Origin: Candidatus Fervidifonticultor secundus
GTDB lineage: Bacteria > Sysuimicrobiota > Sysuimicrobiia > Sysuimicrobiales > Humicultoraceae
NCBI GenBank assembly: GCA_031459385.1
Contig: JAVKIP010000003.1
Coordinates: 32,001 to 96,000, forward strand
DNA length: 64,000 nucleotides
Direction of reading: 5' to 3'
Shown: in pieces, positions 11,179 to 33,535 of the stretch
Numbering within the stretch: the stretch's first letter is position 1
Layout: each line of letters starts with the position of its first letter
Made by a program: the position numbers and the translations under genes
The notes under the pieces: generated by a model
What the model saw: only the letters and a program-made list of their open reading frames with translations
Told to the model about the DNA's origin: nothing
Databases searched by the model: none

Positions 11179-12054
11179 TCATTCCCTGTCCCTGGCATCG
11201 GCCAGGCGCGCGAACTCCTCGACCGAGAGCGTCTCGCCGCGCCGCCGCGGGTCGATGTCCGCCCGCGCGCACCAGGCCACCACATCCGCGGCGGTCAGGC
11301 GCCGCTCGCCGACCTGCCGCAGCGCGGCCCGCAACATCTTGCGCCGCTGCGCGAACGCGGCCCGGGCCACAGCCACGACATCTGCGAGACGGTCGGGGGA
11401 CCGGATCGGCTGCGGGCGCACGTCCAGGCGGACGACCGCCGAGCGCACGCGCGGCGCCGGGTAGAAAGCGGTCCGCGGCACCCGTGCCACCAGCGCCGCA
11501 CGCGCGTACGCGTGCACGAGCACCGTCAGCAGACCGTAGGCGGGCTGGCCGGGCGCTGCCAGCAGGCGGTCGGCCACCTCCTCCTGCACCATCACCACCA
11601 GCCGGCGCCCCGTGCCGGTTTCGAGCAGGCGGACCAGCAGCGGCGACGCAATCGAGTAGGGCAGGTTGGCGACCACCGCCGTGGGCGCCCACGGCAGCCC
11701 GATCCAGGGCAGGGCCAGGGCGTCGCCGTGCACGACGTGCACCCGCGGCTCCCGCGCACAGACCGCTCGCAGCACCGACACCAGCCGCGGATCCACCTCG
11801 ACGGTGATCACGCGCGCGCCGGTGCGGGCCAGCGCCGTGGTCAGCGTGCCGATGCCGCCGCCGATCTCCAGGACGACGTCGTCGGGGTCCAGGCCTGCAG
11901 CCGCCACGATCCGGTCGAGGAGCCGCCGGCTGACCAGGAGGTGCTGGCCACGCGCGGGCCGCAGCCGCAGGCCGAACGTGCGCAGCACCGTGGCGGCGCC
12001 GGCGCGGCTGGCGAGGTCGAGGTCAGGAGGGAGCGCCGGGGCGCCGGCGGTCAA
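11179..12054 (-). CDS. rsmA: 16S rRNA m6,2A1518/1519 dimethyltransferase
   Basis: GQHLL, VLEIGGGIGTLT, VVANLPYSI, MVQEEVADRL, AFAQRRKML, RRGETLS. Confidence 0.95.
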   Translation of the reverse strand: MTAGAPALPPDLDLASRAGAATVLRTFGLRLRPARGQHLLVSRRLLDRIVAAAGLDPDDVVLEIGGGIGTLTTALARTGARVITVEVDPRLVSVLRAVCAREPRVHVVHGDALALPWIGLPWAPTAVVANLPYSIASPLLVRLLETGTGRRLVVMVQEEVADRLLAAPGQPAYGLLTVLVHAYARAALVARVPRTAFYPAPRVRSAVVRLDVRPQPIRSPDRLADVVAVARAAFAQRRKMLRAALRQVGERRLTAADVVAWCARADIDPRRRGETLSVEEFARLADARDRE

Positions 12055-13067
12055 CGCGACGCGCGGGATGGGGCAGGGGTGGACAGGATGTAGACGCGCA
12101 CCGGTCGCCGGCCGAACCGGATCGCCTCACGGGCCGTGTTGAACCCCAGGTCGATGCGGTGCCCCTTGATGGCGCCGCCGGTATCGCCGGCGATGGCGAC
12201 GCCGTACCCCTCGATGTAGAGCCGCGCCCCCAGGGGGATCACGCGGGGATCCACGGCGACGACCCCATAGCCGGCGCGCATGCCCGTCGCGGTGACATCG
12301 TCCACTCCCCACCCGGTCCACGGTGCGTATCCCGTGGCTTCCATGTGGAGGATCTCCTTGCCCGCGAACTCCCCGCGCGAGGCGACCATCCGCCGGGTGC
12401 CGACGTGCACGATCCGGGCGTGCGGGGGCTGGACCAGCACGTGCCCCACGTCGCGCCGGCCGATGACGACGCCGTCGGCAAGGGTCACGGCCACGCGCCG
12501 CAGGCGCAGCCCGGGCCGGCCGGGCTGCACGACGCGCATCAGCCCCCGCGGCAGCCCGTCGTCGGGACGCAGCACGCGTCCCGGGCGCACCCGCTCCACC
12601 TCCTCGACGATGCGGGTCTCGATGCGGACGACACGGACCAGAGCGCCTGGGACCAGGGCGACGTCCCGAGCAGGGAAGACCCGATCACCAGGCCGGACCA
12701 CCAGCCCGCCGGGGCGCTCGGCGAGGAGTTCGTCCACGGTCTCCGCCGCGCTCAGCACGCGGTACTGCGTCCGGCCGACCGCGACGGTCACGGGGACGGC
12801 GCGCCGCACGCGAAGCGTCGTGCCCGAAGCCACGGGCGTCGCGCGCGGAGGCCGCACGCGGTCGTGCGGCCCGAGCCGTACGCCGGCGTCGGTCAGCACC
12901 TCGTCCACCGTGGCCCGCCAGGTCAGGATCACGCGGGAGGTGGCGTCGGTGACGACGACGACGGCCTTGTAGGCGTCCGTCAGGGCTGCCGTGCTGATGG
13001 CGGTGACGAGCGTGGAGAGCACCCATACCAGCCCGAGGCGCCGTGCGGAAGCGCTCAAGCCTCTCAC
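12051..13067 (-). CDS. YabE/RpfB-like cell wall protein (DUF348 repeats, G5, 3D domain)
   Basis: TVDEVL..AGVRLGPHDRV repeats, G5-like segment, and 3D motif VAVDPRVIPLG..AGDTGGAIKGHRIDL. Confidence 0.88.
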   Translation of the reverse strand: MRGLSASARRLGLVWVLSTLVTAISTAALTDAYKAVVVVTDATSRVILTWRATVDEVLTDAGVRLGPHDRVRPPRATPVASGTTLRVRRAVPVTVAVGRTQYRVLSAAETVDELLAERPGGLVVRPGDRVFPARDVALVPGALVRVVRIETRIVEEVERVRPGRVLRPDDGLPRGLMRVVQPGRPGLRLRRVAVTLADGVVIGRRDVGHVLVQPPHARIVHVGTRRMVASRGEFAGKEILHMEATGYAPWTGWGVDDVTATGMRAGYGVVAVDPRVIPLGARLYIEGYGVAIAGDTGGAIKGHRIDLGFNTAREAIRFGRRPVRVYILSTPAPSRASR

Positions 13068-18852: not shown

Positions 18853-20400
18853 CTACAGCGGGATGTTGCCGTGCTTGCGGCGGGGAACGCTCACGCGCTT
18901 GCGGTGCAGGACCTCCAGTGCCGCGACCAGCCGGCGGCGCGTCTCACGCGGGGGGATCACATCGTCGATGTAGCCACGGGCGGCCGCCACGTAGGGGGTG
19001 GCGAACTGCGCCCGGTATTCGGCGACCAGCTCGCGACGCCGGACCTCGGGATCGGGAGCCTCGGCCAGCTCCTTGCGGAAGATGATGTCGATGGCGCCTT
19101 CCGGCCCCATCACGGCGATCTCGGCCGTGGGCCAGGCCAGGTTCAGGTCGCCGCGAATGTGCTTGCTGGACATGACGTCGTAGGCGCCGCCGTAGGCTTT
19201 GCGGGTCACGACGGTCAGCTTGGGCACCGTGGCCTCGCAGTAGGCGTAGAGCAGCTTGGCGCCGTGGCGGATGATGCCCCCGTGCTCCTGCGCTACGCCC
19301 GGCAGGAACCCCGGCACGTCCACGAACGTGACCAGCGGCAGGTTGAACGCGTCGCAGAACCGGACGAACCGGGCGCCCTTGACCGACGCGTCGATGTCGA
19401 GCACGCCGGCCAGCACCGCCGGCTGCTGCGCCAGCACGCCCACCGGCCGGCCCGCGAGCCGCGCGAAGCCGCACAGCAGGTTGCGGGCGAATCCCGCGTG
19501 AACCTCCAGGAAGTCGCCGTCGTCGACGATGCGCCCGATCACCTCGTGCATGTCGTAGGGCTTCGTGGGATCCTCGGGCACCAGGGCATCCAGCGCCGGA
19601 TCGGCCCGCGCGGGATCGTCCGTGGGCGGCCGCCGCGGAGGTTCGTCCAGGTTGTTCGACGGCAGGTAGCCCAGCAGCCGGCGGATCAGGGCGAGGCACG
19701 CCTCGTCGTCGGCCGCGACGAAGTGGGCGATGCCGCTGCGCTCGGCGTGCACATCAGCGCCGCCCAGCGCTTCGAACGACACCTCCTCACGGGTCACCGC
19801 CTTCACCACCTGGGGGCCGGTCACGAACATGTACGACGTGCCTCGCACCATGACGACGAAGTCGGTGATCGCCGGCGAGTAGACGGCGCCCCCGGCGCAC
19901 GGTCCCATGATGGCCGAAATCTGCGGGATCACGCCGCTCGCCTGCGTATTCCGCCAGAAGATCTCGGCGTAGCCGCCGAGGCTCATCACGCCCTCCTGGA
20001 TCCGCGCGCCCCCGGAATCGTTCAGCCCGATGATCGGCGTGCCGGTGCGCAGGGCCAGGTCCATGACCTTGCAGATCTTCTCGGCGTGCGCCTCGCCCAG
20101 CGAGCCTCCCAGCACCGTGAAGTCCTGCGAGAAGACGTGCACCGGTCTGCCGTCGATCGTCCCCCACCCGGTGACGACGCCGTCGGCCGGAGCGTCGACG
20201 CGGTCGAGCCCGAAGTCGCGGTTGCGCGGAGCGGCGAAAGGGTCGAGCTCGATGAACGAGCCGGGGTCCAGGAGCGCGTCCAGACGCTCGCGCGCGGTGA
20301 GCTTCCCGGCCTCGTGCTGCCGGCGGACCCGCTCGGGCCCGCCCATGGCCAGGACCCGCTGGCGGCGACGGCGCAGGTCATCCAGGCGGTCGTCAGGCAC
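18853..20400 (-). CDS. pccB: Acyl-CoA (propionyl-CoA) carboxylase carboxyltransferase subunit
   Basis: [49 protein letters not shown], and the RKHGNIPL end. Confidence 0.93.
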
Positions 20401-20420
20401 GACGCCGCGGCGGAAGCCGG

Positions 20421-21653
20421 CTAGGCCGTGACGTCGGGATCCGGGGGCAGCGGCCCGTGGGGCCGGATCGCAATGATCCCGTGCTTGAAAAGCAGCTCCT
20501 GCACGCCGTTGACCTCGACGATCAGGCTGTACGTGCCGTACTCCCGGACGATCGCCGACGGGAGCTCGTAGCCGTCGCGGCAGCGGATGTGGACCGGCGC
20601 GGCCGAGAGCACCAGCCGCCGGTAGAAGGCGTCCTCGACGGACAGCTTGCCGACGGCGGACCTGCCTGGCGTGGGCCCGTCGGTCCGTGCCTCCTCGCGC
20701 ATCACGGTGGGTGCACCTCCCTGGCGTTCAGGACGGATCTCGCGCATGTCCCTGACGACGTCTTCCGCCACGGGCTCAGGCGGCGCCGCGGGCGGCGCAG
20801 CCTGCACCCGCTCGCCAGCGCCCACCTGGTCGGCGGGCGGCTCCGCCCCCAGCGTGACCGCAGTGGCCCAGGTGGCCGCAGTCTCCGCGGCGTCAGGCGA
20901 CGCCGCGGCGGGCCTTCCGGCGGCGAGCGCGGGCCCCCGGATCAAGCGCTCGTAGTGCTGGCGCAACCCCTCGACCTGCCGCCGGCGGTCGGGCCGGAGG
21001 GGCTGGGCCGGCCGCGCGCGCTGCGGCTTGCGGGCCGCGTCGATGACCGCCGCCACCACCGCCTCGGCCTCGCTGGCATCCACGGTCTCGGCGCCCACGT
21101 GGAGGAGCGTCCCGCGGTGGGAGGCCAGCGACACCGCTGCCAGCGCCACCGTGACGCCGGCGAACGCCGTCAGGGTGAGGCCCTCCAGCGCGGGCCGGAA
21201 TCCGCCGCGCTCAGCCAGGGGCCGCAGCGCCTCCACTGTGGCCAGGGCGACGGTGCGCAACCGGTGCATCTGCCCGGGCGGCGCCTGCGCGGAACCCGCG
21301 ACGGTCTTCTGCGCGCCCTCGCGCTCGTAGCGCAGCTCGACGACAGCCCGCGCCAGGGTTTCGGTCAGGGTCTCCTCGAGCCGGACGAGCTGGCAGGGGG
21401 GGATCACCTCGGGCGTGGGCTGCGGCTCGAGGTGCGCGATCTGCACCCGCCACCCGTCCACGGGCAGCCCGTACTGGCTGATCAGTGCCGAGGTGATGGC
21501 GCGCCGGATCGCCCCGTCGTCGCGGGTCGACTCTGTGGTGACGTAGATACGCTCGATCTCGCCGCCCTCATTGGCCACCACCCGAGCGGCGGCGACGGCC
21601 TCCAGCCGCTCCAGGAACGTCTCGATCTCGTCGGCGAACACCTCACGGGGCAC
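20421..21653 (-). CDS. Multidomain protein with uncharacterised N-terminal domains and a C-terminal Hfq/Sm-like domain
   Basis: GTG at 21653 with a GGGGAG RBS. The C-terminal VEDAFY..PVHI...DG...[12 protein letters not shown] aligns by eye to Hfq LQDPFL..PVSI..NG...VYKHAISTVVP. Confidence 0.75.
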
Positions 21654-21724
21654 CGGCGACTCCCCACTGCTGCCCTCAACGGTTTCCGTTACCTTCTGCG
21701 GTGCACAGACGTCTCCTGCCCGGC

Positions 21725-24315
<2,591 letters not shown>

Positions 24316-24320
24316 CTACC

Positions 24321-24605
24321 CTACCATGCCGCCGCGCCCCCGGCCATGGCAGGGATGATGGAGACCTCCGCGCGCTGGTCCAGCGGGGTGTGCAGGCCCT
24401 GCAGCGTACGCACGTCCTGCTCGTTCACGAAGACGTTCACGAAGTGGTGGAGCTGGCCGTCCCCGTTCACCAGCCGCTCGCGCAACCCCGGGAAGCGGCG
24501 CTCGAGTTCGTCGATGGCCTCCGCCAGCGTCAGCGCCTCCACCGTGACCACCCGTGCGCCGTTCGTGTAGCGGCGCATGGGTGAGGGAATGCGAATCGTC
24601 GCCAC
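24321..24605 (-). CDS. MoaD/ThiS/CysO-type ubiquitin-like sulfur carrier with an AAAW extension after GG
   Basis: GAGGAGGA RBS. Sequence reads IRIPSPMRRYTNG...FVNVFVNEQDVR...IIPAMAGG-AAAW. Confidence 0.9.
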   Translation of the reverse strand: MATIRIPSPMRRYTNGARVVTVEALTLAEAIDELERRFPGLRERLVNGDGQLHHFVNVFVNEQDVRTLQGLHTPLDQRAEVSIIPAMAGGAAAW

Positions 24606-24616
24606 CGTCGTCCTCC

Positions 24617-25843
24617 TCACGAGACCCTGGCCAGCACCGCGTCTTCGAACGCCCGCAGCGACGGCCGCACGCGCACAGGCGCCGCCACCGCGTCGGCCAG
24701 GTGGTCTGCGGTCTTCAGCCCCATGCCCGTGATGAACGCCACCGTGACGCCCGCGGGATCCAGGGCGCCGCCTGCGGCCAGCTTCTTGAGCACCGCGATC
24801 GTCACCCCGCCGGCGGTCTCGGTGAAGATCCCCTCGCACTCGGCCAGCAGGCGGATGCCGTCGACGATCTCCTCATCGGTGGCGTCGTCGATGCGGCCGC
24901 CGCTGGCTCCCACCGCGGCGATGGCGTACCGCCCGTCGGCCGGCGTGCCGATGGCCAGCGACTGCGCGATCGTACGGGGCCTGACGGGGGTGATGGCCCC
25001 GCCCCGTTTGAACGCCGTGCTGACCGGCGCGCACCCTGCCGGCTGCGCGCCGTGCACGCGCGTCGTCGCGGCGGCGACCAGGCCCACCGCGGCCAGTTCC
25101 TGGAAGCCGCGGTGGATCTTGACCAGCAGGTTGCCCGACGCGACGGGCACCACCACGTCAGCGGGCACCTGCCATCCGAGTTGCTCGGCCACCTCGAAGG
25201 CCAGGGTCTTCCCGCCCTCGCTGTAGTACGGCCGCATGTTGACGTTGAGGAAGGCCCAGTGGTGCTCCTCGCCGATCTCGGCGCAGAGCCGGTTGACGTC
25301 GTCGTAGCTGCCCTCGACCTCGACCACGGTCGGCCCGTAGATGGCCGAGGCCAGCACCTTGCCGCGCTCCAGGCCGGCGGGGATGAAGACGTAGGCGCGC
25401 ATGCCGGCGCGGGCCGCGTGGGCAGCCACCGAGTTGGCCAGGTTGCCGGTAGAGGCGCAGGCGAGCACGTGGTAGCCGAACCGGCGCGCCGCCGCCGTCC
25501 CGATGGACACCGACCGGTCCTTGAACGACCAGGTGGGGTTGGTGGAATCGTTCTTGATGTACAGGCGCTGCAGCCCCAGGCGCTCGCCCAGCCGGGGCGC
25601 CGGCACCAGCGGCGTGCACCCCGGGGAGAGGTCTGCGGCCGGATCGCAGGGCACCGGCAGGAGATCGGCGTAGCGCCAGATCGACCGGGGTCCGGCCTCG
25701 ATCCGCTGCCGCAGCGGCAGACGGCGCAGCGTCTCCAGGTCGTACACCGGTTCCAGCGGGCCCAGACAGCGCTCGCACACGTACACCGGCCCGGCCGGCA
25801 CCTCCGCGTCGCACTCGCGACACCGCAGCCGATCGACTGCCAT
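24617..25843 (-). CDS. Threonine synthase-like PLP enzyme, probably an O-phosphohomoserine sulfhydrylase (MetM-like)
   Basis: N-terminal CxxC...CxxC, NPTWSFKDR, ASTGN, NVNMRPYYSEGGKT. Flanked by a sulfur carrier gene and under a SAM riboswitch. Confidence 0.85.
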   Translation of the reverse strand: MAVDRLRCRECDAEVPAGPVYVCERCLGPLEPVYDLETLRRLPLRQRIEAGPRSIWRYADLLPVPCDPAADLSPGCTPLVPAPRLGERLGLQRLYIKNDSTNPTWSFKDRSVSIGTAAARRFGYHVLACASTGNLANSVAAHAARAGMRAYVFIPAGLERGKVLASAIYGPTVVEVEGSYDDVNRLCAEIGEEHHWAFLNVNMRPYYSEGGKTLAFEVAEQLGWQVPADVVVPVASGNLLVKIHRGFQELAAVGLVAAATTRVHGAQPAGCAPVSTAFKRGGAITPVRPRTIAQSLAIGTPADGRYAIAAVGASGGRIDDATDEEIVDGIRLLAECEGIFTETAGGVTIAVLKKLAAGGALDPAGVTVAFITGMGLKTADHLADAVAAPVRVRPSLRAFEDAVLARVS

Positions 25844-25875
25844 CTCTCTCCTCCCCCGCCCGGTGTTCCCGGCGG

Positions 25876-26775
25876 TCAGGTCGCCAGGGCTCCCCGGGGT
25901 TCGATGCGTGTCTCGATCGCACGGCTGTGCACGCCCACCGCGGCGAAGGCAGCCACCATGGCGGCGCCCACCGCGCCCGCAGCCTCCGGTGGCGCCAGCG
26001 CCGCCACCGTGGGCCCGGAGCCGCTCAACACCGCGCCGTAGGCACCCGCGGCCTCGGCAGCGCCCACTACGGCCTCGAAGCCCGGTACCAGCGACGCCCG
26101 GTACGGCTGGTGGAGCCGGTCGCGCAGCGCGCCCCGCAGGGCCCCGGCCTGACCCGTGGCCAGCGCGGCGACCACCAGCGCCACCTGCGCCAGGTTGAAC
26201 ACGGCATCCGCGCGCTCGACCTGGGCCGGCAGCACGCGTCGCGCCGCCGCGGTCTCCACCTCCAGCGCCGGCACCGCCAGTACCACGGCCACCGGGAGTG
26301 CCGGGACGATCCGCGCCCACCGCAGTGCCGTCCCGTCGCGGGCCACGATCACGACGCCGCCGAAGAGCGCCGCCGCCACGTTGTCCGGATGGCCTTCCAG
26401 GTCCGTGGCCAATCGCAGCAGCCTCTCGGCGTCCAGGGCGTCGCCCAGCAGCCGGTGCGCGGCCACGAGCCCCCCGACGATGGCCGCAGCGCTACTCCCC
26501 AGGCCGCTGCGCAGGGGAATCGGCGAGCGCGCCCGCAGGGCGAAGGCGCCCTGCCAGCCGGTGGCGGCAGCGGCCACCTGCGCGCTGCGGTAGATCAGGT
26601 TCGAGACGTCCTGTGGGACGTCGACGCCCGCGACCTCGACAGAGGGCGTCGGCGCTGCGGCCAGCGTGACCTCGGCAAACAGGCCAACCGCCGCCCCCAG
26701 GCAGTCGAACCCCGGCCCGAGGTTGGCGACGGTTGCCGGCACCTGCACAGTGACCTGGTCGAGCGCGACGGCCAC
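25876..26775 (-). CDS. thrB: Homoserine kinase
   Basis: PATVANLGPGFD, GLGSSAAA, EGHPDNVAAA, DRLHQPYR, SGSGPT. Confidence 0.95.
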   Translation of the reverse strand: MAVALDQVTVQVPATVANLGPGFDCLGAAVGLFAEVTLAAAPTPSVEVAGVDVPQDVSNLIYRSAQVAAAATGWQGAFALRARSPIPLRSGLGSSAAAIVGGLVAAHRLLGDALDAERLLRLATDLEGHPDNVAAALFGGVVIVARDGTALRWARIVPALPVAVVLAVPALEVETAAARRVLPAQVERADAVFNLAQVALVVAALATGQAGALRGALRDRLHQPYRASLVPGFEAVVGAAEAAGAYGAVLSGSGPTVAALAPPEAAGAVGAAMVAAFAAVGVHSRAIETRIEPRGALAT

Positions 26776-31970: not shown

Positions 31971-33535
31971 CGCCTGCGCTCCGCGGGGGCTGGCGCTGCA
32001 GGCGCGCGGCGCTCGACGGCCACAGGCGCGCGGCGCTCGACGGGCGCGGGTCGCTGAAGAGCCACCGGCGCCGACACCCGCTGGAGGGCGGCAGCCGCCG
32101 CCGCCTCGGACCGGTCCAGCAGCACACGCGGGGAGAGGCCGATGAGGAAGATCAGCACCACCAGCGGCGCGAACACCGCGACTTCGCGCGCGCTCAGATC
32201 TGCCAGCCGCTCGCGGTGCGCGGCCTGCACGGGGCCGTGCATCACCCGCTGGTAGGCCCAGAGCAGGTAGACGGCAGAGAGGATCACCCCGCCCGCAGCC
32301 AGCGCCGCCCACCACCGCGAAGCGCGGAAGGCGCCCAGCAGGATCAGGAACTCGCCGGCGAAGCCGTTGGTGCCCGGCAGCGCCGCCGACGACAGCATGA
32401 CGATGGTGAACACCGCGGCGAAGCGCGGCATCAGCGCCGCGACACCGCCGTAGGCGGCGATCTGCCGCGTGTGGGTGCGCTCGTACAGCACCCCCACGAT
32501 GAGGAACAGGGCACCGGTGCTGATGCCGTGGTTGACCATCTGGAGGAGGCTGCCCTGCAGGCCCTGCACGTTGAGGGCAGCGATGCCCAGCATCACGAAC
32601 CCCAGGTGGCTCACGCTGGAGAAGGCCACCAGCCGCTTGAGGTCGGACTGCGCCCACGACACCGCCGCGCCGTAGAGGATGCCGACGATGGCCAGTGCCG
32701 CGATCAGCGGGGCGGCCCCGGCCAGCGCCTGGGGGAACAGCGCAGGGCCGAACCGGACGAAGCCGTAGGTACCCATTTTGAGCAGCACGGCGGCCAGGAT
32801 GACGCTGCCGGCGGTGGGCGCCTCGGTGTGCGCATCCGGCAGCCAGGTGTGCAGGGGCCAGACGGGCACTTTGACCGCGAAGGCCAGGGCGAACGCCGCG
32901 AACAGCCACGCCTGGACGCCGGGGTCCAGGCGCACCGTCGCCAGGCGCTCGAGGTCGAAACTGCGGGCGCCCAGCTGCCCGGAGGCGACCACGTGGAGAG
33001 CCAGGATCGCCACTAGCATCAGCACGCTGGCGGCCATCGTATAAAGGAAGAACTTCAGCGCGGCGTACCGGCGGTGTTCGCTGCCCCACAGGCCGATCAA
33101 GAACGCCATGGGGATCAGCACGGCCTCCCAGAAGACGTAGAAGAGAATCAGATCGAGGCTCAGGAACGTCCCGAGCACTGCGGTCTCCAGCCCCAGCATC
33201 GCCACCGTGAACGCCTTCACGCGCTCGGTGACGGCGCTCCAGGCGCCGAGCAGGGCCACCGGGAAGACCACCGCCACCAGCCCCGCCAGCAGCAGCGAGA
33301 TCCCGTCGATGCCCACGGCGTAGCCGATGCCGAGCTGGGGCACCCAGGGCACCCGCTCGACGAGCTGCAGCCCGCCGGACGACGCGTCGAACGCGCCCCA
33401 GACCGCCGCGAAGACGGCCAGCGTCGCCAGGCTCGCAGCGAGGCCGGTCCATCGGACGAGATCCTCGCGGTCGCGCGGCAGCAGGGCCACCACCGCGGCG
33501 CCGGCCAGGGGCAGGAAGATCAACCAGGACAGCAC
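31967..33535 (-). CDS. nuoM: NADH-quinone oxidoreductase subunit M
   Basis: GIDGIS, FYVFWE, PLHTWLPDAHTEAPT, LKMGTYG. Confidence 0.95.
   Translation of the reverse strand: MLSWLIFLPLAGAAVVALLPRDREDLVRWTGLAASLATLAVFAAVWGAFDASSGGLQLVERVPWVPQLGIGYAVGIDGISLLLAGLVAVVFPVALLGAWSAVTERVKAFTVAMLGLETAVLGTFLSLDLILFYVFWEAVLIPMAFLIGLWGSEHRRYAALKFFLYTMAASVLMLVAILALHVVASGQLGARSFDLERLATVRLDPGVQAWLFAAFALAFAVKVPVWPLHTWLPDAHTEAPTAGSVILAAVLLKMGTYGFVRFGPALFPQALAGAAPLIAALAIVGILYGAAVSWAQSDLKRLVAFSSVSHLGFVMLGIAALNVQGLQGSLLQMVNHGISTGALFLIVGVLYERTHTRQIAAYGGVAALMPRFAAVFTIVMLSSAALPGTNGFAGEFLILLGAFRASRWWAALAAGGVILSAVYLLWAYQRVMHGPVQAAHRERLADLSAREVAVFAPLVVLIFLIGLSPRVLLDRSEAAAAAALQRVSAPVALQRPAPVERRAPVAVERRAPAAPAPAERRR
31999..32043. 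repeat. 21-bp direct repeat with 24-bp period in the nuoM 3' end
   Basis: caggcgcgcggcgctcgacgg occurs at 31999 and 32023 and encodes VERRAP twice. Confidence 0.7.

Follow-up and report, generated by a model that had tools for sequence, protein, structure and literature searches.

Is the Hfq-like sequence at the end of a 410-amino-acid open reading frame (ORF) in Candidatus Fervidifonticultor secundus a true Hfq domain, is its fusion to the protein in front of it real, and how might such a protein work? The gene, which we call long hfq (and its product long Hfq), lies in a 64,000-nucleotide window of DNA (positions 32,001 to 96,000 of contig JAVKIP010000003.1, GenBank assembly GCA_031459385.1); unless another contig or locus is named, coordinates below refer to this window, and the features are collected in Table 1. 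An initial annotation, made from the sequence alone, had proposed that an Hfq/Sm domain is attached to the C-terminus of two globular domains and a Pro/Ala linker, and that the whole could be a hexameric RNA chaperone or scaffold under the control of N-terminal sensor domains. The findings reported here are that the Hfq domain and the fusion are both genuine, and that in the phylum CSP1-3/Sysuimicrobiota this long form is the only Hfq.

The last 79 residues of long Hfq match the Pfam Hfq family PF17209 with an E-value of 2.1e-5 and 24.5 bits over profile positions 3-62 of 64, and TIGR02383 with 23.9 bits. Counting against the assignment, both scores miss their curated cut-offs (27 bits for Pfam and 61.7 bits for TIGR02383), and orthologues pass the PF17209 cut-off in only 43 of 94 genomes of the phylum (all tallies over these 94 genomes include two that are flagged as unpublished, G024 and G016). 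Other comparisons were made as follows: a profile of 42 family members searched against all Protein Data Bank (PDB) sequences gave 37 matches, of which 36 are Hfq, the best being Thermotoga maritima Hfq (4y91, E 9.7e-8), and hhalign aligned the family with canonical Hfq at a probability of 90.5% (E 1.4e-6). The AlphaFold (AF2) model of the domain consists of a helix (residues 339-350) and strands (353-398) with predicted local distance difference test (pLDDT) values of 92-97. Foldseek superimposes it on Hfq structures with template modeling (TM) scores of 0.83-0.90 by target and root mean square deviations (rmsd) of 1.1-2.3 Å, and VIA gives Z 11.2-11.8 against bacterial Hfq (for 4y91, Z 11.8 and rmsd 1.5 Å with 66/66 residues aligned) and lower values, Z 8-9, against eukaryotic and archaeal Lsm proteins. 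The canonical Hfq structures compared included those of T. maritima (4y91), Caulobacter crescentus (6gwk), Listeria monocytogenes (4nl2) and Escherichia coli (1hk9). PF17209, the family profile against the PDB, Foldseek, VIA and hhalign thus all agree that the C-terminal ~65 residues are a true Hfq-homologous Sm domain and not a chance likeness.

Could the fusion nevertheless be an error of assembly or gene calling that joined two genes at the linker? The region is GC-rich and has long spurious ORFs, and metagenome assemblies are the sole source of the gene, all of which would make an error of this kind easier. However, the same uninterrupted frame is present at 60 loci in a species-level genome collection that draws on many independent assemblies and studies, and a word-based search found 98 protein clusters of 267-473 amino acids with the same build and full-length matches. 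In addition, a 3009-nt contig of sequencing run X1 covers the region without a difference, contigs of a relative from a different study (X6) cover most of it, and the G+C content at third codon positions (GC3) is continuous, remaining at 0.73-1.00 in one frame over all 410 codons. We regard the artefact explanation as having a negligible chance of being right. The 60 loci carry the labels CSP1-3, Candidatus Fervidifonticultor, Geohabitans, Calidihabitans, Thermofontivivens and 'ANGP1', and some are metagenome-assembled genomes (MAGs) labelled Armatimonadota or Bacillota. Their synteny is conserved, with gerM upstream at 52/60 loci and pccB downstream at 51/60, and several of the misses fall at contig ends. 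The fusion is therefore genuine and conserved across CSP1-3/Sysuimicrobiota, and the architecture recurs throughout the phylum with conserved neighbors.

The ends of the gene are as the initial annotation gave them. In the same-frame extension upstream of the GTG at 21653 GC3 drops to 0.59, which places the start of long hfq at this GTG, and all of the 42 aligned homologues begin with the corresponding N-terminal sequence MPREVFAEEIE.

The genome of Ca. F. secundus is 97.6% complete and contains no other credible PF17209 match, so a search for a canonical hfq elsewhere in it came back empty. A second, rejected match (contig C16, 14.7 bits over 30 positions) lies inside a 417-amino-acid HtrA-like protease ORF. 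Among the 94 phylum genomes PF17209 has a match in 69 (above the cut-off in 43, as above), nearly all in frames of ~365-900 amino acids, and a profile of the N-terminal module (below) has a match in 80, of which 73 are of the fused type (at least 214 bits). The sole canonical stand-alone Hfq in these genomes is an 80-amino-acid protein (103.9 bits) at G055:C156 (L063:1465-1707, minus strand); its sequence is of proteobacterial type and its genome is 3% contaminated, so we set it aside as most likely belonging to a foreign contig. The word-based search returned five short stand-alone proteins (72-135 amino acids) with the Sm signature of long Hfq, all on contigs of 1.1-1.7 kb and probably fragments, although such a search is no proof that a short stand-alone form is absent. 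The long form is thus the only Hfq of the phylum. Two families, f5 (G080-G091; 0/12) and f7 (G093; 0/1), have neither long Hfq nor the stand-alone form of its N-terminal module, nor any Hfq match, which suggests that both were lost or arose later. These 13 genomes belong to the same order, and many of them are 94-100% complete.

The initial annotation knew of no description of this architecture. In the papers covered by our literature search, likewise, an Hfq with a folded N-terminal module is not described, nor is one with an internal start, and the main texts of the two CSP1-3 papers do not mention Hfq; yet annotation pipelines already label some long Hfq orthologues 'RNA chaperone Hfq' or 'sRNA-binding regulator protein Hfq'.

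Which of the RNA-binding features of Hfq does the fused domain retain? The proximal uridine pocket of Hfq is formed by Q8, F/Y42, K56 and H57, and in E. coli Hfq the arginine rim (R16, R17, R19) is required for RNA annealing. We mapped residues from the hhalign alignment, using E. coli residue numbers that are taken to be one lower than those of the canonical L063 Hfq. In this map D9, F11 and G29 are retained, F42 is replaced by another aromatic residue (Tyr), and Y55-K56-H57 has become F-K-H. In the family alignment K390 and H391 are invariant, F389 is kept in 41/42 sequences and Y375 in 39/42. The β4-β5 segment, which is the ring interface in Hfq, is also conserved in the family, and the loop after strand 2 has a one-residue insertion relative to canonical Hfq. 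On the distal face Y25, N28, I30 and K31 are replaced by R, D, Y and E, respectively. The ten-residue stretch that makes up this face in Hfq is nevertheless the best-conserved part of the whole long Hfq protein, and it includes an invariant cysteine. The by-eye residue assignments of the initial annotation, including the changes at Q8 (here Glu), Y25 (here Arg) and K31 (here Glu), are borne out by this map, as is its view of a proximal face that is retained in part and a distal face that has been remodelled; the remodelled face is also highly conserved. The invariant cysteine itself is encoded by codon 358 (20580-20582), lies in strand 2 of the Sm domain in 42/42 sequences and stands where E. 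coli Hfq has L26; its role could lie in redox chemistry, in metal binding or only in the structure.

Other features of the Sm domain speak against its binding RNA as E. coli Hfq does. Glu invariably takes the place of Q8 in the uridine pocket, and Q41 has become Thr; rim residues R16, R17, R19 and K47 correspond to V348, L349, A351 and E380 in this copy and across the family to V, L/A/T, A/G and E; and the median net charge of the domain in the family is 0. RNA binding could therefore be weak or of another kind. Two arginines, R345 and R346, lie one helical turn before the aligned rim positions. The loss of the rim arginines had not been remarked on in the initial annotation. Because the arginine rim is absent and the distal face is replaced, long Hfq is, to judge from the alignment, probably not a classical E. 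coli-style small RNA (sRNA)-mRNA matchmaker or annealer.

The same changes (the invariant Glu at Q8, the replaced rim arginines and K47, and the zero net charge), together with a score below the Pfam cut-off in this copy, could also mean that the Sm domain has lost its chaperone role altogether and is a mere ring platform that displays six N-terminal modules, in which the biological activity would then reside. Against this, K56 and H57 never vary and Y42 and F55 hardly do, the distal-face stretch is the most conserved of the protein, which argues for a specific ligand on the ring, and a conserved internal start that would yield the Sm domain alone (below) makes little sense for a platform. We therefore think that loss of the chaperone role is quite unlikely.

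The N-terminal part of long Hfq has two globular domains, D1 and D2, as the initial annotation had proposed. Two AF2 models give the same anatomy, with pLDDT values of 79 for the whole protein and 89 for residues 1-240; D2 is followed by a basic helix, which is modelled at residues 223-238/239 in both and has a median net charge of +3.5. The median charge of D1 is -5 and D2 is neutral, and the module has six invariant arginines (R24, R50, R69, R91, R131 and R133). VIA relates D1 (Z 7-9.2) to the C-terminal subdomains of adenylate-forming enzymes, the C-terminal domains of CDF transporters and BolA-like proteins. For D2 the best likeness is to the allosteric regulatory domains of Mycobacterium tuberculosis LeuA (3fig; VIA Z 9.5, 110 residues aligned, rmsd 2.6-2.7 Å) and Leptospira LiCMS, a citramalate synthase (3f6g; Z 8.8-8.9, 109 of 115 residues), with Foldseek probabilities of 1.00. 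Structural matches in the ESM Atlas have TM scores of 0.54-0.60 and include one cluster automatically named LeuA allosteric domain, but these are leads only, and the feature scores there (0.88-0.89) lie below the 0.9 bar.

How far can this likeness be trusted? A Z of 9.5 is little above the 7-8 typical of unexplained models, and the sequence comparisons do not favor it: no Pfam family matches residues 1-234 at E-values up to 10, PF08502 (the LeuA regulatory family) included; none matches in 15 stand-alone homologues of the module (below); a weak NCBIfam isopropylmalate-synthase match (E 2e-4) occurs in only one of 60 stand-alone homologues; and a stand-alone profile searched against PDB sequences gave nothing significant, only two matches at chance level. 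The separate profile check of the N-terminus thus gave no Pfam or NCBIfam family above threshold, and the LeuA-type assignment of D2, which comes from modelled structure, is a resemblance by fold and not family membership.

We also modelled two copies of residues 1-215 as a dimer from an alignment of our own making, in three runs with three controls. The median ipSAE was 0.50 (runs of 0.50, 0.54 and 0.48), the best control gave 0.00, no fewer than 63% of contacts were common to the runs and partner pLDDT never fell below 81. In the calibration of the tool 20 of 30 solved homodimers reached the ipSAE mark, as did 1 of 23 proteins whose structures are single chains. The predicted interface is symmetric and formed by the second β-β-β-α unit of D2 (residues 157-173, 184-190 and 205), with the nearly invariant G187 on the two-fold axis; the matching Gly is the sole invariant column in the alignment of stand-alone homologues. 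These models support dimerization of the D1-D2 module, with the reservation that passing the mark is a matter of model confidence with our own alignment as input.

A profile of 28 fused N-termini, searched against 1.84 billion representative sequences, matched 2241 clusters at E ≤ 1e-3 and 852 at E ≤ 1e-10 (clusters at 50% identity). Beyond the fused proteins, the matches are mostly 197-265 amino acids long and cover profile positions ~8-213, the best stand-alone members reaching E 3e-32 over positions 7-212. Those with names are each called 'hypothetical protein' and come from Bacillota, Thermoanaerobacterales and other MAGs. The initial annotation's remark that the N-terminus resembles an uncharacterised Firmicutes hypothetical-protein family thus holds in the sense that homologous stand-alone proteins of ~215 amino acids abound; the host of long Hfq itself belongs to CSP1-3/Sysuimicrobiota, not to the Firmicutes. 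A tree of 69 modules, made up of 28 fused ones, 11 stand-alone ones of the phylum and 30 of the 60 rows of alignment A3 (every second one), places the fused modules in one clade with a Shimodaira-Hasegawa-like approximate likelihood ratio test (SH-aLRT) support of 99 and a long stem, apart from the clade of phylum stand-alone modules (support 100). This topology fits a single fusion event followed by divergence.

Ca. F. secundus has such a stand-alone paralogue of its own, ~215 amino acids long (G000:C3:68920-69567, which is L079:6906-7544, plus strand), between a long-form hpf gene (L079:6281-6865) and secA (L079:7660-10299). Of 11 stand-alone loci from the phylum, 7 have hpf immediately upstream and 9 have secA downstream. 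We gathered a further 80 metagenome loci of the stand-alone family (L090-L169) with a 12-row alignment (A4). There the next same-strand gene downstream encodes an HD_5/HD-GYP protein, often with a MASE9 membrane domain, at 44 of 73 loci, and at two further loci the downstream ORF is truncated and shows MASE9 only. Of the 60 loci whose upstream sequence extends for 700 nt or more, 20 have hpf directly upstream, and pheT makes up 8 of 39 further upstream ORFs (9 short ORFs were left out of 48 candidates). A preprint describes MASE9-HD-GYP proteins as cyclic di-GMP (c-di-GMP) phosphodiesterases with a membrane sensor (bioRxiv 10.1101/2021.11.05.467447). The Ca. F. secundus genome has five HD_5 and seven GGDEF matches. 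Our literature search found nothing that links hpf and HD-GYP, and the stand-alone family is a candidate for a new component of cyclic-nucleotide or ribosome-hibernation signalling.

Do these links bear on long Hfq? Because D2 has the fold of the LeuA/citramalate-synthase allosteric domain and the stand-alone relatives are linked to HD-GYP genes, it is plausible, on the strength of models and neighborhoods, that the N-terminal module is a sensor. The connection is weakened by the fact that the HD-GYP and hpf links belong to the relatives, the neighbors of the fused gene being gerM and pccB, and that none of the 80 stand-alone loci has an hfq within 5 kb.

The neighborhoods also allow a different interpretation, in which the module is not a sensor but a further RNA- or ribosome-binding unit, its D1 being KH/BolA-like and its D2 like double-stranded RNA-binding domains (dsRBDs) or uS5, and long Hfq is a multivalent ribonucleoprotein scaffold, perhaps on hibernating ribosomes. 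The second unit of D2 (residues 151-211) aligns with the uS5 N-terminal domain at Z 6.7-7.4 (rmsd 1.5-2.0 Å, 53-54 residues), Foldseek lists tandem dsRBD proteins (TRBP, Loqs, NF90 and R2D2) at probabilities of 0.35-0.94, and the six invariant arginines and the hpf, pheT and secA neighbors of the stand-alone genes, including the organism's own paralogue, point the same way. However, an acidic D1 and a neutral D2 are unusual for RNA-binding modules, the TM scores of the dsRBD matches do not exceed 0.22, the uS5 matches could be due to chance, and LeuA and LiCMS fit D2 better over its whole length (Z 9.5 and 8.9; 109-110 residues). We consider an RNA-binding module unlikely.

Between the basic helix and the Sm domain both models show ~95 disordered residues. 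The linker proper is rich in Ala and Pro (19% and 18%), as the initial annotation had noted, with 11% each of Glu and Gly; it varies from 18 to 126 amino acids in the family. Its acidity (median net charge -8) had not been pointed out there. It is followed by a short linear motif, E-I-R-P-E-R-x-G-G-A, in which I306, R307, P308, E309 and A314 are invariant in the 42 sequences.

Why should this motif be conserved in its nucleotides as well? Gly312-Gly313 is written GGA GGT, which creates the Shine-Dalgarno-like sequence GGAGG, and in-frame GTG and ATG codons follow 10 and 13 nt on, so that an Hfq-only product of 93-94 amino acids is predicted. In 37 of 58 unique family genes GGAGG is followed 4-10 nt on by an in-frame ATG, GTG or TTG, and 11 more have a 4-nt core. 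Elsewhere this combination is rare: it occurs at 26 of 23,111 other codons of these genes, 13 of 26,823 codons of pccB and 16 of 17,008 of ligA, a background of 0.5-1.1 per 1000 codons. Median GC3 in the 14 codons at the motif is 0.57, against 0.85 for whole genes, and neighboring synonymous sites vary freely. Two 92-amino-acid database proteins have been called from precisely this internal Met. The simplest reading of these sequence patterns is nucleotide-level selection for a ribosome-binding site, from which it follows that the short product is predicted beside the 410-amino-acid protein; a second Hfq isoform of ~93 amino acids is probably made from the internal start. This probable start was absent from the initial annotation.

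It is also conceivable that only the long protein is made, and that the GGAGG sequence and the drop in GC3 come from a pause of translation between the domains or simply from the way a conserved peptide motif is encoded. Ten of the 58 genes, forming one sub-clade, have no Shine-Dalgarno sequence plus start and yet keep IRPE and GGA as amino acids, which both favors this explanation and tells against the short isoform, and the 58 genes are kin, so their counts are not independent events. On the other side, Gly-Gly is encoded as GGA GGT in spite of the high gene-wide GC3, neighboring synonymous sites are free to vary, and a suitably spaced in-frame start is present in most of the genes and rare elsewhere (above). 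A long protein alone is thus a serious alternative but a clearly less probable one than two isoforms.

How might these parts work together? We propose that long hfq encodes a phylum-specific Hfq that combines an Sm ring with an RNA site, a dimerizing regulatory module, a shielding linker and a short isoform, and we judge this combination as a whole somewhat more likely to be right than wrong. The Sm domain would form an Hfq-type ring and bind RNA through the partly conserved proximal pocket (Y42, K56, H57), and a strongly conserved, lineage-specific surface of another kind takes the place of the arginine rim and the ARN-type distal face. The N-terminal modules would dimerize through the second β-β-β-α unit of D2 and have a regulatory function, possibly with a bound ligand, in which subunits are paired or cross-linked. 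Like the acidic C-terminal tail of E. coli Hfq, the acidic linker may cover the surfaces that bind RNA, and the internal Shine-Dalgarno sequence and start would yield the ~93-amino-acid isoform, which would dilute the modules in mixed rings, so that rings could carry a variable number of them. Of the initial annotation's overall interpretation, the Hfq domain, the fusion, the partly kept proximal and remodelled distal face and the uncharacterised N-terminal family have held up, and the sensor role is plausible only.

As to signal and target, a nucleotide second messenger and translation control are the leading guesses, by analogy, because the stand-alone relatives are linked to HD-GYP and hpf. 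In its most specific form, this would be an Hfq gated by a second messenger: D1-D2 would bind c-di-GMP or a related nucleotide at the dimer interface, rings would be mixtures of long and short subunits, the nucleotide level and the isoform ratio would together set the number of modules per ring and their shielding, pairing or cross-linking, and the stand-alone family would be new nucleotide-signal receptors acting on translation. We regard all of this being true together as improbable and offer it as a speculation.

Table 1. Positions in the window of long hfq, of the parts of its product and of the two adjacent genes
Feature	Position	Strand	Description	Basis
Whole coding sequence, long Hfq	20421..21653	-	410 amino acids, GTG start, TAG stop	ORF and translation, GC3, gene ends
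D1	21426..21653	-	residues 1-76; α-β-β-α-β, ferredoxin-like, net charge about -5	AF2 models
D2	21018..21404	-	residues 84-212; two β-β-β-α units, LeuA-regulatory-like	VIA, Foldseek
Conserved basic helix	20934..20996	-	residues 220-240; DRRxQxExLRxHYERLIR	alignment, models, charge
Disordered acidic Ala/Pro/Glu/Gly linker	20745..20933	-	residues 241-303	pLDDT <50, composition
Linear motif E-I-R-P-E-R-x-G-G-A	20712..20741	-	residues 305-314	alignment
Candidate internal translation start	20700..20720	-	GGAGG 20716-20720, in-frame GTG 20703-20705, ATG 20700-20702	
Hfq/Sm domain	20454..20645	-	residues 337-400; N-terminal helix and five strands, Sm2 motif FKH	
Pro-rich short C-terminal tail	20424..20453	-	residues 401-410	family alignment
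Germane (GerM) domain protein	21725..22252	-	hydrophobic N-terminal segment; upstream neighbor	PF10646, E 7.5e-21
Carboxyltransferase, pccB-like	18853..20400	-	downstream neighbor	PF01039, E 3e-203

In the window the gene order is thrB, thrC-like, ligA, gerM, long hfq, pccB, GNAT, biotin carboxylase, methylmalonyl-CoA mutase and MeaB, so that long hfq does lie just upstream of the propionyl-CoA/B12 cluster, as stated originally. There are 71 nt between the end of the upstream Germane-domain gene and long hfq, and the start of pccB on the same strand is 20 nt beyond the TAG stop (20421-20423). A scan of 20300-22300 showed no promoter-like site; a terminator-like hairpin found there within the gerM coding region was taken as chance. 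One exact 180-nt contig from metatranscriptome run X4 (21618-21797) runs from the 3' end of the gerM-like gene across the 71-nt gap and 36 nt into long hfq. It is compatible with co-transcription of the two genes but proves nothing, since DNA was possibly present in the library. The X4 contigs do not cover the Hfq part of long hfq, and the run's two other pieces, of 18-25 nt, are from another record.

Some other genes in the window deserve mention. A small ORF at 24321-24600 (minus strand) has the C-terminal sequence AMAGGAAAW, which resembles that of a ThiS/MoaD-type sulfur carrier extended by a few residues past Gly-Gly, and has no Pfam match at E 1e-5; it adjoins a PALP (threonine-synthase-like) gene (24617-26320, minus strand) whose product has CxxC...CxxC motifs in its N-terminus. 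At 12051-13067 (minus strand), beside ksgA and downstream of the mutase-MeaB genes, lies a gene for a G5/DUF348/3D-domain protein, an architecture like that of resuscitation-promoting-factor-like cell-wall enzymes.

Nearly all work on Hfq concerns small stand-alone rings whose only addition, if any, is a disordered C-terminal tail, and here a widespread uncultured phylum has as its only Hfq one that is tethered to a folded, probably dimeric, regulator-like module. If the proposal above is true, long Hfq would offer an example from nature of an RNA chaperone that is directly controlled by allostery or stoichiometry. It is also a first lead to the function of a large unnamed family (more than 2000 clusters) that is found beside HD-GYP and ribosome-hibernation genes. 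Every part of long Hfq is open to expression and in vitro testing with no need to culture the organism.

How does long Hfq compare with known systems? With canonical Hfq it shares the Sm fold (Z 11-12, rmsd 1.0-1.5 Å), the core length, the residues D9, F11, G29, the aromatic 42 and [F/Y]-K-H, and the role of the genome's sole Hfq homologue. It differs in that the canonical core lies near the N-terminus of a protein of 70-110 amino acids and here it is C-terminal in 410, in the replacement of Q8, of rim residues R16, R17, R19 and K47 and of Y25, I30 and K31, and in the invariant Cys at 26 and the one-residue insertion. The allosteric domains of LeuA (3fig/1sr9) and LiCMS (3f6g) share with D2 the doubled β-β-β-α fold and the two-fold homodimer, which here is predicted. 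In LeuA the amino-acid effector binds at the dimer interface. Unlike these enzymes, long Hfq has no PF08502 match and no synthase barrel, and a ferredoxin-like D1 precedes the domain. The stand-alone ~215-amino-acid family is homologous over D1 and D2, with one such paralogue in the same genome, but its members are usually followed by MASE9/HD-GYP genes and often preceded by hpf, whereas the fused clade is long-branched and its genes lie between gerM and pccB. ClpB, IF2 and CheA are known cases in which an in-frame internal start gives a long and a short isoform. With these long hfq would share an in-frame Shine-Dalgarno sequence and start and long and shortened products that co-assemble, in the present case as a prediction from sequence.

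Regulation of Hfq by a disordered acidic C-terminal domain is described for E. coli and Caulobacter (PMC5606850, PMC6561178). The common element is a disordered acidic segment beside the Sm core that may compete with RNA for basic surfaces; in long Hfq, however, the segment precedes the core and connects it to a folded module, and there is no basic rim of the kind to which the E. coli tail binds. Finally, in cyanobacteria comFB, which encodes a c-di-NMP receptor, often shares an operon with hfq (PMC12448109). Both systems would couple Hfq to a protein of a cyclic-dinucleotide pathway, but comFB and hfq form an operon and not a fusion, the ComFB fold is unrelated to D1-D2, and the link of long Hfq to such a pathway is through the gene neighborhood of its relatives alone.

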